The notes under the pieces: generated by a model | Database searches by the model: none | Told to the model about the DNA's origin: nothing | What the model saw: the letters and a program-made list of their open reading frames with translations, nothing else | IMG/VR virus record: IMGVR_UViG_3300045988_028789 | Location: 1-5,297 of that record | Strand: one strand, 5' to 3' | DNA: 5,297 nt | Source of the DNA: a virus | Program-made: the position numbers and the translations under genes | Part shown: positions 2,613 through 5,095 of the stretch, piece after piece | How the letters are laid out: every line of letters begins with the position of its first letter | How positions within the stretch are numbered: the first letter of the stretch is position 1

Positions 2613-2640
2613 AGCCGGGGACAAGACCCCGGCTATTTTT
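2613..2640 (+). terminator. Rho-independent terminator hairpin between VP1 and VP2 (8-bp stem AGCCGGGG / CCCCGGCT, 6-nt loop ACAAGA, then A + T5)
   Basis: Seen directly: 2613..2620 is the reverse complement of 2627..2634, followed by ATTTTT (2635..2640). It sits 12 nt after the VP1 stop. An SD-like AAGGAAAGGAG (2600..2610) lies immediately 5' of the stem. Confidence 0.6.
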
Positions 2641-2644
2641 GAAA

Positions 2645-3499
2645 ATGGTATTACCAGCCTTTTTAGGAGCCTTAGAAACAGGCACGAAAATACTGGGCGG
2701 CGTAAGCGGTCTTATAAGCGCCGGAACAGGCATCTACAACGCACTCAAAGGCACATCAGGTAGCGGAGCAACAAGCTCAAGCGGATACCAAACAAGTCAA
2801 GGGGCAAGCGGTTCGACCATGACCGGAGAAAGCGGGGTAAACGTAGACCAAACAAAAGACCTCGCAAAATACTTCCTTGGTCAAAGTCAGCAAGCACAAG
2901 GGATGCAGAGCTTGCAAAACAACAAAAACTCTCTCATGGCACTGGGATTAAACACTCTGGGAGCTATCCAGCAGGGCGTTTACAATCGTATCCAGCAAGA
3001 CGCAGCAATGTCCTACAACTCCGCAGAGGCAGCAGCTAACAGAGCATGGCAGGAGCGAATGAGTAACACAAGCTATCAAAGGACAATGGCCGACATGGAA
3101 AAAGCGGGACTTAATCCCATACTGGCCTACGCACAAGGCGGCGCAAGCACTCCGGGAGGAGCACAAGGAAGCATCGGCCAAAGCAGCATAAGCGCACCAA
3201 GCGTTGGAACGCAGTCGGCAAGTATGCCGACAATCTCCGGTACAATGGCAAACTATAGCCGCCAAAAGGCGGAAAGCTGGTCGTGGACAGACTCGCACGG
3301 AGAGCAGCACAGCAGCGGCTACAACAGCTATCAAACAGATTTCCCGGATTTAACGCCTTGGCTCAATCAAAACAAAAACAGCGGCGAAAAAGCCGGAAAT
3401 AACACGGTGGACGCGCTAAGCGGAGCTGACCACAAAGCAAGAAGCGGCAAAGTGCCAAATCTTAATCCGATGAACAAATATATTAACGGAGGCAAATAA
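2645..3499 (+). CDS. Minor capsid / DNA pilot protein VP2 (phiX174 H analogue), about 284 aa from ATG 2645 (the track uses TTG 2639)
   Basis: Composition is typical of gokushovirus VP2: a hydrophobic N-terminus ([27 protein letters not shown]), a Gly/Ser/Gln-rich low-complexity centre and a C-terminal [12 protein letters not shown]-type segment. It lies between VP1 and VP4. TAA 3497..3499 overlaps the ATG 3499 of VP4 (TAATG). Confidence 0.75.
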
Positions 3500-4521
3500 T
3501 GAGTTGCGAACGACCACTTATCCGCGTATACAATCCGAATGACCACAACATAACAGGGTCAATAATGACCTTAGAAAAGTACAGAGAAAGAACGCACAAT
3601 CCAACAGCAACTTATGAGAGCATCGCATACAGACCAGACGTAATGCTACTACCGTGCGGAAAATGTTTGGGATGCAGACTCAGACAGCGGCAAGATTGGG
3701 AAACGCGAATGCTGATGGAGTCAAAAACACTAACTCCAGTATGGTTTTTAACTCTAACATGGAATCAAGAATATGTGCCCGGAATGATAAGAGCAACAGG
3801 CGAACTTATACGTGGAGCAGTACACCAGTGGACAACGGGAGACGCGCCAGAAGTTGTGCAAATCCTATTGCAAAAGGACATGGTACTTTTTAACAAGAGG
3901 CTCCGAAAAAAGCAAGAAATGTCCGATAAATGGGGTACAGACCTCAGATATTTTTATTGCGGCGAATACGGCGAAACCACAGGCAGACCGCATCACCATG
4001 CAATCTATTATGGGTTAGAAATACCAGACCTCAAGAAAAAAAGAGGCAATAATCCATACTTTGAGAGCGAAACAATAGATAGAATCTGGGGAATGGGCAA
4101 TGTCATCATTGCAGAAGCATCACCGGAAACAATGGCGTATGTAGCGGGATATGTGACAAAAAAAGCCTACGGCAACGACACAAAACGATACAATGAACTA
4201 GGACTACCAGCGCCTTACTGCTGTATGTCACGAAATCCGGGCCTAGGATACGACTACTACCAAGAGCACAAAGAGCAAATGTACAAAGACGATGGGCTAT
4301 ATTTTAACGGCAAAAAAAGGCCCATTCCAAGGTACTTTGACAAAATGCAAGAAACTGAAAATCCCAAAAGGTTATGGGAAATCAAAGAAAAAAGGCAATC
4401 AAGTGCAATAAATGCACTTAAAGTCAAAATGTCAAACACAGACGTAACCATCGAAGAGCAAGGAAAAATTAAGGAAAAGAATCTCAGAGAACGCTTTAGT
4501 AAAGCAAGGGGGATTCTCTAA
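3499..4521 (+). CDS. Rolling-circle replication initiation protein VP4 (phiX174 gene A analogue; HUH superfamily endonuclease), 340 aa
   Basis: All three rolling-circle Rep motifs are present: motif I FLTLTW (nt 3745..3762), motif II HHHAIYYG (HHH at nt 3991..3999) and motif III with paired catalytic tyrosines YVAGYVTKK (nt 4138..4164; compare phiX174 A YVAKYVNKK). There is also an N-terminal CGKCLGCR Cys cluster. SD GGAGG lies at 3488..3492 with a 6-nt spacer. Confidence 0.93.
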   Translation: MSCERPLIRVYNPNDHNITGSIMTLEKYRERTHNPTATYESIAYRPDVMLLPCGKCLGCRLRQRQDWETRMLMESKTLTPVWFLTLTWNQEYVPGMIRATGELIRGAVHQWTTGDAPEVVQILLQKDMVLFNKRLRKKQEMSDKWGTDLRYFYCGEYGETTGRPHHHAIYYGLEIPDLKKKRGNNPYFESETIDRIWGMGNVIIAEASPETMAYVAGYVTKKAYGNDTKRYNELGLPAPYCCMSRNPGLGYDYYQEHKEQMYKDDGLYFNGKKRPIPRYFDKMQETENPKRLWEIKEKRQSSAINALKVKMSNTDVTIEEQGKIKEKNLRERFSKARGIL

Positions 4522-4530
4522 ATGGTGTCA

Positions 4531-4566
4531 GTGGGCCTAATCCTATCAAGAAACGATTAGGCCCAC
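4531..4566 (+). other. Perfect 12-bp stem-loop (GTGGGCCTAATC / GATTAGGCCCAC, 12-nt loop) 10 nt after the VP4 stop
   Basis: 4531..4542 is the exact reverse complement of 4555..4566. It is not followed by a T-run, so it may be an ssDNA structural element or origin/primosome-type hairpin rather than a canonical terminator. Confidence 0.5.
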
Positions 4567-4618: not shown

Positions 4619-4666
4619 AGGGGTCTCCTACGGGAGACCCCTTTCGTCTGCGCCCCTAGTAGGGGC
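4619..4666 (+). other. Two adjacent GC-rich hairpins (10-bp stem AGGGGTCTCC/GGAGACCCCT with a UACG-type tetraloop; 6-bp stem GCCCCT/AGGGGC with a 3-nt loop)
   Basis: 4619..4628 pairs with 4633..4642, and 4652..4657 pairs with 4661..4666. CTG trinucleotides sit between and after the hairpins (4647..4649, 4667..4669). They could be a weak terminator (CCCCTTTCG) or a complementary-strand origin-like structure. Confidence 0.45.
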
Positions 4667-4703
4667 TGCCGAGGTCACGAAGCGAATCATAAGTTCAATC
4701 ACA

Positions 4704-4754
4704 GTACACGCGCACGCACGCACGCGCGAAACGCGCACGCACGCACGCACGCAT
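4704..4754. repeat. Perfectly alternating purine/pyrimidine tract, (CACG)n/(CGCG)n tetranucleotide repeats in two 22-25-nt arms around GCGCG-AAA-CGCGC
   Basis: Seen directly: gtacacgcgcacgcacgcacgcgcg aaa cgcgcacgcacgcacgcacgcat. Alternation is unbroken over 4704..4728 and 4732..4754. It has Z-DNA-forming potential and is a simple-sequence (slippage-prone) repeat. Confidence 0.8.
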
Positions 4755-4815
4755 TCTATTATTTTATTCATTACTTGTTGTAGTCGTAGTAGTAGTGTAT
4801 GTGGAAAAGTTGAAT

Positions 4816-4846
4816 GTGATAATAATTCTTCGTTATCACGTGATAA
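4816..4846. promoter_or_regulatory. 14-bp perfect palindrome TTATCACGTGATAA (4833..4846) plus an upstream third half-site GTGATAA (4816..4822); candidate dimeric protein-binding operator
   Basis: TTATCACGTGATAA is its own reverse complement. GTGATAA at 4816..4822 is also the reverse complement of TTATCAC (4833..4839) and gives an alternative 7-bp stem with a 10-nt loop. Confidence 0.5.
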
Positions 4847-4874
4847 TTAACAACATTTCTCAGTTGAAAGTTTT

Positions 4875-4965
4875 GTTGAAAACTTGTGGAAGATGTTGAA
4901 ATATAGCAAGTTGCACAAAATCCTTTGTGCATATTGTTGTTGAAAACTTGTGGAAAGTGTTGAAA
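4875..4965. repeat. 27-bp direct repeat GTTGAAAACTTGTGGAARRTGTTGAAA (4875..4901 and 4939..4965; 25/27 identical, 64-bp period) with additional GTTGAAA / GTGGAAA reiterations (4801, 4864, 4968); iteron-like
   Basis: Seen directly in an AT-rich block. A 7-bp hairpin GCACAAA/TTTGTGC (4913..4930) lies between the two copies. Confidence 0.7.
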
Positions 4966-5000
4966 ATGTGGAAAACTCAGGAACCAGTTAGTATAAGCAA

Positions 5001-5077
5001 TCTCGCCTGCGGGCGAGAAACCGACGCCTTGCCCAAAATTGCTGCGCAACCTTGGGCAAAACGCCGGTTGTTTTTTT
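5001..5077 (+). terminator. GC hairpins (TCTCGCC/GGCGAGA 5001..5018; TTGCCCAA/TTGGGCAA 5029..5059 with an internal mini-hairpin) followed by a T-rich run TTGTTTTTTT (5068..5077); terminator-like element closing the non-coding region
   Basis: The reverse-complement arms were verified by eye. A T7 run follows 8 nt after the last stem. It would terminate read-through from VP4 before the promoter of the gene chain. The spacing to the T-run is slightly long for a canonical intrinsic terminator. Confidence 0.4.
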
Positions 5078-5095
5078 ACAGAAAAGCATTATAAT
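5068..5095 (+). promoter_or_regulatory. Sigma70-like promoter candidate: -35 TTGTTT (5068..5073), 16-nt spacer, -10 TATAAT (5090..5095)
   Basis: The -10 hexamer is a perfect consensus. The -35 matches 3/6 (TTGxxx). It sits about 15-25 nt upstream of the SD-like AAGGTGGTG and the first ORF of the + strand gene chain, right after a terminator-like element. Confidence 0.35.

Follow-up and report, generated by a model that had tools for sequence, protein, structure and literature searches.

Organization of the repeat region

We analysed a window of 5,297 nt (the whole of the stretch of viral DNA taken from IMG/VR record IMGVR_UViG_3300045988_028789), which is a complete gut gokushovirus genome. 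Between the gene for VP4, the Rep protein of the phage, and the next operon, which holds structural genes, lies a non-coding stretch of about 580 nt. Within it, positions 4755-4975 carry a compact module in which an AT-rich stretch is followed by a run of TAG triplets, a 4-nt spacer and ten 9-mers, all on the same strand and grouped in clusters of two, four and four. The resemblance of this module to chromosome origins of Clostridia suggests that the 9-mers, here named B1 to B10, are boxes for the host initiator protein DnaA. The elements of the module and its border are the following.

4708-4754: alternating purine-pyrimidine, GC-rich tract (CGCA/CGCG)n, a tandem repeat of period 4 with 11 copies; outer border of the module
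4755-4774: AT-rich stretch (18 of 20 bases A or T), candidate DNA unwinding element
4775-4795, plus strand: conserved core, TTGTTG followed by TAG TCG TAG TAG TAG (triplets at 4781-4795), DnaA-trio-like, 5'-TAG-3' being 3'-GAT-5'
4796-4799, plus strand: spacer between the trios and B1, TGTA in the window
4800-4808, plus strand: B1, TGTGGAAAA (reverse complement TTTTCCACA)
4808-4816, plus strand: B2, AGTTGAATG, degenerate in the window; AGTTGAAAA in most relatives
4817-4861: variable spacer 1, with the palindrome TTATCACGTGATAA at 4833-4846 and a third half-site, GTGATAA, at 4816-4822
4862-4870, plus strand: B3, AGTTGAAAG
4874-4882, plus strand: B4, TGTTGAAAA
4885-4893, plus strand: B5, TGTGGAAGA
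4894-4902, plus strand: B6, TGTTGAAAT
4907-4936: spacer 2, with a hairpin or palindrome, TGCACAAA-atcc-TTTGTGCA, at 4912-4931
4938-4946, plus strand: B7, TGTTGAAAA
4949-4957, plus strand: B8, TGTGGAAAG
4958-4966, plus strand: B9, TGTTGAAAA
4967-4975, plus strand: B10, TGTGGAAAA

The original prediction, made from the letters of the window, had described iteron-like direct repeats at 4800-4980, namely a 27-bp unit present twice, 64 bp apart, plus GTTGAAA/GTGGAAA half-sites in an AT-rich block, as a candidate binding array for an initiator or for host factors of the IHF/Fis type. We found that the repeats themselves are real. The 27-mer GTTGAAAACTTGTGGAARRTGTTGAAA occurs at 4875-4901 and again at 4939-4965, and a repeat finder delimited a 29-nt unit around it (4873-4901 and 4937-4965, 93% identical, 64 nt from start to start). 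GTKGAAA has nine exact matches in the window, eight of them within 4801-4974 and all on the plus strand, against a mean of 1.56 in shuffled sequences, and none of 200 shuffles reached nine. Near-copies are GTTGAAT (4809) and GTGGAAG (4886). The block is AT-rich as described, with a GC content of 0.32 over 4801-5000. The repeating unit, however, is the 9-mer TGT[T/G]GAAAA, phased at 8-12 nt, and not a 7-mer or 27-mer; the 64-bp repeat of the 27-mer corresponds to two paralogous four-box clusters, B3-B6 and B7-B10, which occur likewise in Clostridia origins. The element also begins about 45 nt further upstream, at about 4755, and its diagnostic upstream part, the run of TAG triplets (DnaA-trios) with the AT-rich stretch, was absent from that earlier description.

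Conservation of the module among gokushoviruses

A BLAST search with positions 4780-5000 retrieved 34 GenBank gokushovirus records, nearly all of them matching in unannotated non-coding DNA. Alignment of 16 BLAST-derived records revealed a module of about 220 nt with its elements ordered as in the window: GC-rich alternating tract, AT-rich stretch, core, spacer, B1-B2, spacer, B3-B6, palindrome spacer and B7-B10. The core was the most conserved block, with the nearly invariant consensus (A)ACTTGTTG TAG nnG TAG TAG TAG followed by a 4-nt G-rich spacer. Scanning IMG/VR with the core pattern gave 120 loci; IMG/VR loci, GenBank genomes and the window together made up 98 distinct genomes with a VP1 match. 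A second scan used the B7-B9 pattern only and was thus unbiased toward the core. It added 66 further loci, and the run of TAG triplets was kept in all of the approximately 59 modules that could be evaluated. The carriers thus include well over a hundred gut gokushovirus genomes.

Among the 98 genomes, box starts relative to the core were almost invariant (25 and 33; 87, 99, 110 and 118; 162, 173, 182 and 191), across VP4 proteins that are 32-100% identical to that of the window. Phasing, which the original prediction had proposed to compare among relatives, is therefore conserved, and repeats and spacing are kept in the 34 GenBank records as well as in the 98 genomes, contrary to the outcome that would have refuted that prediction. 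The 927 boxes of these genomes give the consensus T G T [T 85% / G 15%] G A A A [A/G]. The canonical G form is enriched in the first boxes (B1, 52%; B4, 30%; B7, 35%), and the first box in each cluster tends toward the most canonical form. Conservation was focused on boxes and trios and the spacers varied, indicating a protein-binding constraint and not selection for overall homology.

The spacers nevertheless show some regularities. Spacer 1 differs in sequence among genomes, and the distance from B2 to B3 is steady at about 54 nt. The short spacer between trios and B1 is GGGC or GGGAG in most relatives and in bacteria. In spacer 2, a palindrome of at least 5 bp is present in 66 of the 98 modules, versus 15% of shuffles, and it comes in two unrelated sequence types. 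Small palindromes were also seen at equivalent places in one bacterial origin (L226, described below). Either binding of a second, dimeric factor or hairpin formation may account for these palindromes. Tracts like (CGCA/CGCG)n flank most phage modules, and a short CTCGCGCGCGCC stands at the same place in the L226 origin; such a tract may be prone to Z-DNA or may restrict the opened bubble in the manner of a GC clamp.

Similarity between modules did not follow similarity between genomes. The module of the window is 80.7% similar to its closest counterpart, which lies in a genome whose VP4 is 42% identical, and 65-72% similar to modules of genomes whose VP4 is 96-97% identical. Either lineages have exchanged the module, or its spacers change rapidly while the boxes are under constraint.

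Two variants of the module were observed. In about one-third of modules (L001, L009, L012-L014 and others), the last box, about 196-198 nt from the core, is inverted and reads TTTTCCACA, so as to form an imperfect hairpin with B9; this hairpin is absent from the window. By analogy, on single-stranded DNA it would present a duplex DnaA box, an arrangement that recalls the 'A site' of R6K. In three genomes (L069, L283 and L315), the left part of the module appears to be partly duplicated, giving a second trio run and box pair.

Comparison with the basal unwinding system of bacterial origins

The basal unwinding system of bacterial origins has been defined as a DnaA box with at most two mismatches to TTATCCACA, a spacer of 0-16 nt, commonly a short GC-rich cluster, at least three consecutive NAN trios (consensus 3'-GAT-5') whose strand and side follow from the box orientation, and then an AT-rich unwinding element (PMC8287927). 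In the window, the reverse complement of B1, TTTTCCACA, has one mismatch to TTATCCACA and none to the relaxed form TTWTNCACA, and the canonical TGTGGATAA occupies the B1 slot in some relatives. The spacer is 4 nt long. Three contiguous trios, TAG TAG TAG, lie at 4787-4795, and a further TAG lies at 4781-4783, separated from them by one TCG. Beyond the trios stands the AT-rich stretch at 4755-4774, as it does in relatives and in bacteria. B2 has five mismatches to TTATCCACA, and AGTTGAAAA, the B2 of most relatives, has three, the threshold for a second box being four. A chromosomal context, that is, a dnaA/dnaN neighbourhood, is missing, and the module lies between VP4 and the structural-gene operon. 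This location points to an oriC-derived module and not to a chromosomal origin.

In C. difficile, the opposite strand of the trio region has the sequence 5'-CACCTACTACTATTACTACTATGA-3'; boxes lie upstream of this region and the unwinding element lies downstream (PMC7561715). In Firmicutes, a trio complement with at least two TnnT motifs constitutes the DnaD recognition element (PMC10201434), and TnnT repeats of this type are present in CTACTACTAC, the complement of the core in the window.

The boxes fit the DnaA-box consensus TGTGNAWAA with zero or one mismatch. At this stringency we counted 24 matches in the window, compared with 9.4 expected, and none of 200 shuffles reached 24. Eight of the matches fall within 4800-4975, all on the plus strand: seven of the ten boxes, and TGTGCATAT at 4926-4934 in the spacer-2 hairpin.

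Similarity to chromosome origins of Clostridia

We scanned one genome per bacterial species with the phage-derived pattern TAGTAGTAG-N3-5-TGTKGAAAA and found at least 120 bacterial loci. Among the matches listed, a dnaA or dnaN open reading frame lies within 1 kb in 90 of 120 loci. Clustering of the surrounding open reading frames in these matches placed DnaN first (80 loci, median distance 66 nt), followed by DnaA (69 loci, median 238 nt) and then RecF and GyrB, and Pfam confirmed all four assignments. With the TAG strand as reference, dnaN is found toward the AT-rich stretch and dnaA toward the boxes, in 67 of the listed loci each, and trio polarity in the window is identical to that in the 90 listed origin matches. 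The usual bacterial order is thus the canonical one of dnaA, boxes, trios, unwinding element and dnaN, indicating that the phage arrangement is that of a chromosomal origin in order, polarity and spacing. A pair of the B1-B2 type also follows the trios in bacterial origins, box clusters 2 (4862-4902) and 3 (4938-4975) match bacterial origin arrays, and the location of the AT-rich stretch is shared by every phage module and by the bacterial origin matches.

The similarity extends beyond the scanned pattern. An nhmmer profile of the 98 phage modules aligned over almost its full length to the origins of two gut Clostridia: one in a metagenome-assembled genome of an uncultured Clostridia (L253, E 2.9e-20), and one in a metagenome-assembled genome of Eubacteriales from a Hadza gut sample (L226, E 4.9e-19), where the match lies between dnaA and dnaN. 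Both show the clusters and spacers of the phage module. Because the whole-module match was partly seeded by the scan pattern, we rebuilt the profile from B3-B10 (roughly 4822-4990) and searched it against 0.9 Mb. It still matched L191, a Ruminococcus (E 2e-11), L253 (1e-10) and L226 (7e-9 and 7e-8), and found nothing in three dinucleotide-shuffled copies.

The form of the box points in the same direction. Matches with the T-form box that adjoin dnaA or dnaN come from gut or rumen Clostridia in 13 of 15 cases among those listed. In a set of 15 Clostridia origin regions, TGTTGAAA is the commonest box 8-mer, with 63 occurrences in 11.4 kb versus 62 in 104 kb, an enrichment of about 9-fold, indicating that the T-rich box variant of the phage is the dialect of the host group itself. 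Homology of the module to the origin between dnaA and dnaN in gut and rumen Clostridia makes these bacteria the predicted host group. A second phage-like box array was seen in the Ruminococcus metagenome-assembled genome (L191, 607-727), about 4.6 kb from its unwinding module and beyond yidC; it may be a DnaA-box cluster outside the origin.

Orientation of the module and strand asymmetry

Relative to the genes, the module is direct in 77 and inverted in 21 of the 98 genomes. In one clade, with VP4 32-37% identical to that of the window, an inverted module lies upstream of VP4, not downstream. Occurrence in both orientations rules out a signal specific to one strand, whether in RNA or in single-stranded DNA, unless module and packaged strand flip together, and it fits an element acting at the level of the duplex. 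AT skew at four-fold sites of the gene strand was 0.37-0.52 in direct and 0.49 in inverted genomes, with A exceeding T very strongly in all carriers. As the skew is equal in both classes, nothing suggests that the packaged strand flips, and the idea of the module as a plus-strand origin gains no support. This is weak evidence, for the skew could reflect selection on the coding strand. In one bacterial match (L255), the unwinding module is inverted relative to dnaA and dnaN, indicating that orientation can flip in chromosomes too.

A likeness between the core and the origin of phiX174, CAACTTG/ATA, was considered and dropped: the window reads TTACTTG, and AACTTG occurs by chance in reference phages.

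A candidate DnaA-dependent unwinding module

Taken together, these observations lead us to the reading that the repeats are probably DnaA boxes and that trios, spacer and AT-rich stretch combine with them into a basal unwinding module of the chromosome-origin type, extended by two additional four-box arrays, that would be opened by host DnaA on the replicative form. Host DnaA would bind the boxes of the double-stranded replicative form, oligomerise from B1/B2 onto the TAG strand and open the AT-rich stretch. This opening would recruit the helicase-loading machinery of the host, so that replication of the replicative form would be started or boosted. Many copies of a ten-box array would also titrate DnaA, and such titration is likely to accompany unwinding. 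Boxes that are near-invariant across VP4 proteins of 32-100% identity point to a conserved host factor, and a trio run kept in every evaluable module found by its boxes only argues for unwinding and not mere titration. Trios, spacer and AT-rich stretch are conserved no less strictly than the boxes.

Several points weigh against this reading. Anatomy, conservation, independence of orientation, homology to bacterial origins and the shared box dialect are observed in the sequences, and DnaA binding, unwinding, origin firing, the use made of the opening and the host are predicted from them. Similarity to the best bacterial matches amounts to 65-80% and falls short of near-identity. The box found most often, TGTTGAAAA, whose reverse complement is TTTTCAACA, mismatches a base-contacted position of the E. 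coli consensus, and we take it as a true DnaA box because it is enriched at Clostridia origins. The cultured gokushoviruses Chp2, SpV4 and phiMH2K have no box cluster, which indicates that the module is accessory and stands outside the core replication scheme of microviruses. In C. difficile, oriC2 alone is not unwound without oriC1 (PMC7561715), so that a lone module may not fire as an autonomous origin. Finally, the opening could serve helicase loading or help VP4, or it could serve nothing beyond titration.

A further step would be that a large gut gokushovirus clade has captured a working chromosome-type origin from its Clostridia hosts, and that the double-stranded form replicates from it in theta mode, independently of VP4 and dependent on DnaA. 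We put this forward tentatively, as a possibility that we would not yet back.

Alternative explanations

The main rival to an unwinding module is that the array acts as a DnaA sink or sensor only and never fires. It would titrate DnaA, with host chromosome initiation switched off or the DnaA regulon changed, or it would couple phage expression to DnaA-ATP. By analogy, such an array would resemble the DnaA-box clusters found outside oriC, which are established as DnaA binders; those of B. subtilis, and datA of E. coli, are dense arrays able to titrate DnaA, as the phage module would be. A multicopy replicative form with ten boxes in each genome would bind a large amount of DnaA, independence of orientation fits this role, and a lone module of the oriC2 type may not unwind. 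However, the B. subtilis clusters and datA lack trios and an unwinding element, and a pure sink needs neither, yet trios, polarity, 4-nt spacer and AT-rich stretch are kept in all evaluable phage modules. We therefore consider a role as sink or sensor only to be unlikely.

Alternatively, the repeats could be iterons of VP4, that is, the bind locus of a rolling-circle plus-strand origin with the nick site in or next to the core, in which case inversion would flip the packaged strand. Rep origins typically have direct repeats close to a highly conserved core, as at the bind locus of pMV158; the module always adjoins VP4, and TTGTTG of the core has no obvious bacterial counterpart. Like the pMV158 repeats and geminivirus iterons of Rep-dependent rolling-circle replicons, the boxes are direct repeats in phase, and they occupy AT-rich non-coding DNA of a replicon with a gene for an HUH Rep. 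Iterons vary in step with the Rep that they serve, whereas the phage boxes stay the same across VP4 proteins of 32-100% identity and match the sites of a host protein. Moreover, the same arrays are found at bacterial origins, cultured gokushoviruses replicate without the module, and the four-fold-site skew is the same in direct and inverted genomes. The term iteron thus holds as far as it denotes direct repeats of an origin-type element that would bind an initiator, and fails where that initiator would be the Rep of the phage itself, for which we see little chance.

An array of 0A boxes would have Spo0A-P silence phage replication, with the genome trapped in the spore of a spore-forming host, as is the case for phage phi29. 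The box resembles the consensus TGTCGAA at six of seven positions, and the predicted hosts are Clostridia. However, among the 927 boxes the fourth base is T in 85% and G in 15%, with no instance of C, TGTCGAAA does not occur in the Clostridia origin regions, and the layout of trios, spacer and AT-rich stretch is specific to DnaA, which makes this explanation very improbable. We give equally little credence to an integration homology patch, by which the replicative form would recombine into the chromosome next to dnaA. About 200 nt are similar to Clostridia origins, and similarity of the module is decoupled from that of the rest of the genome, as such a patch would have it. Against this, conservation resides in boxes and trios and not in the spacers, and no clearly integrated copy appeared in the origin-seeking genome scan, which was not aimed at prophages and whose matches include a few short bacterial contigs unchecked as microvirus DNA.

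The least credible candidates are a promoter, an UP-element, a group of IHF/Fis sites, and repeats arisen by chance in AT-rich sequence. TTGAAA is similar to a -35 hexamer, and there is one weak consensus match at 4940-4967. However, the module occurs in either orientation to the genes, its consensus showed no conserved -10 partner, terminator-like hairpins stand on both sides of it and a perfect TATAAT follows downstream, the IHF consensus WATCAANNNNTTR has no match with one mismatch or fewer in 4700-5000, contrary to the IHF-like sites suggested earlier, and none of 200 shuffles reached the observed motif count. Four rivals (iterons of VP4, boxes for Spo0A, a patch for integration, and promoter or IHF sites) are thus each contradicted by a specific test.

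Relation to known replication origins

The closest relative of the phage module among known systems is the basal unwinding system of bacterial oriC, as in the dnaA-dnaN region of B. subtilis and C. difficile. Element order, polarity and spacing are the same, with shared 5'-TAG-3' trios, a short G-rich spacer, a tandem box pair and same-strand arrays spaced by about one helical turn, and direct sequence similarity links the phage module to Clostridia origins. By contrast with oriC, the phage module resides in a 5.3-kb single-stranded-DNA phage that has its own rolling-circle Rep, and it occurs in either orientation to the genes. Unlike a bipartite oriC, it has no second, upstream box cluster, and an invariant TTGTTG precedes its trios.

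DnaA boxes are well known at the origins of mobile replicons, such as P1 oriR, F, pSC101 and RK2, and in the 'A site' hairpin (ABC primosome) of R6K and pBR322. Plasmid and phage-plasmid origins resemble the phage module in that they borrow host DnaA through boxes at the origin. There, however, one to a few boxes aid a plasmid initiator that has iterons of its own, whereas the phage has ten boxes plus trios and no separate iterons. A hairpin-embedded box like that of R6K/pBR322 is found in a subset of the phage relatives only, those with the last box inverted, and not in the window.

Microviruses are the textbook example of a minimal replicon of the rolling-circle type, with one Rep nick site as its origin. 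The original prediction had stated that repeat arrays of this kind are undescribed for microviruses, and the literature searched agrees: it contained no description of DnaA boxes or DnaA-trios in Microviridae, most subscription journals being outside its scope. Both the DnaA boxes of plasmid and phage-plasmid origins and the bacterial basal unwinding system are well known already. What is new is a near-complete chromosome-type unwinding module in a rolling-circle single-stranded-DNA phage, similar to Clostridia origins and conserved across a large gut clade.

The presence of the module in more than 100 gut gokushovirus genomes suggests that very abundant gut phages engage the master initiator of their hosts. 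[quoted passage not shown] The box dialect points to Ruminococcus, Acutalibacteraceae and other Clostridia as hosts, a range not known for cultured microviruses. Were the module a captured working origin, it would allow minichromosome-like persistence or early amplification in competition with the host origin for DnaA, the phage would be the first microvirus with two replication modes, and origin mimicry would become a sequence-only predictor of hosts for uncultured phages.

Genomic setting and related arrays

Genes and signals outside the module are arranged as follows.

476-1012: VP3
1009-2601: VP1, major capsid protein (Pfam Phage_F, E 1e-173)
2639-3499: VP2
3499-4521: VP4, Rep protein
4531-4566 and 4619-4642: GC-rich hairpins 3' of VP4, probable terminators that would insulate the module on the VP4 side
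5019-5069, plus strand: long imperfect hairpin with a T-run at 5072-5078, probable terminator
5090-5095, plus strand: perfect TATAAT, followed by a strong ribosome-binding site, AAAGGTGGTG (to 5115)

The terminator-like hairpin and the TATAAT that follows it indicate that the main promoter lies downstream of the module, not inside it. The open reading frame behind TATAAT and AAAGGTGGTG crosses the end of the window into its start, as expected of a circular genome. Shine-Dalgarno sequences are strong ahead of VP1 and VP4, which fits a host of the Firmicutes type. The region of the module is non-coding: every plus-strand frame has stops, the minus strand is fully open in only 17 of the 98 modules and in inconsistent frames, and Pfam gave no match for the two open reading frames that overlap the module. 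A scan of the window for tRNA and tmRNA genes found none, and an Rfam scan of the whole window returned two sub-threshold chance matches, neither of them in the repeat region.

Gokushoviruses from faeces of humans, pigs and dogs have an overall identity of 78-88% to the window. Carriers of the module have genomes of 5.3-6.1 kb, and Chp2, SpV4 and phiMH2K have genomes of 4.4-4.6 kb.

Among IMG/VR matches to the box pattern outside the microviruses, two (L264 and L298) look like coding or chance sequence and were set aside. A third contig (L301) holds a real array at about 10890-11200, with at least 17 boxes of the TGTTGAAAA type in about 450 nt after an AT-rich stretch. It has very few long open reading frames and is possibly a recoded phage. 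DnaA-box arrays may also be present on further mobile elements from the same hosts.

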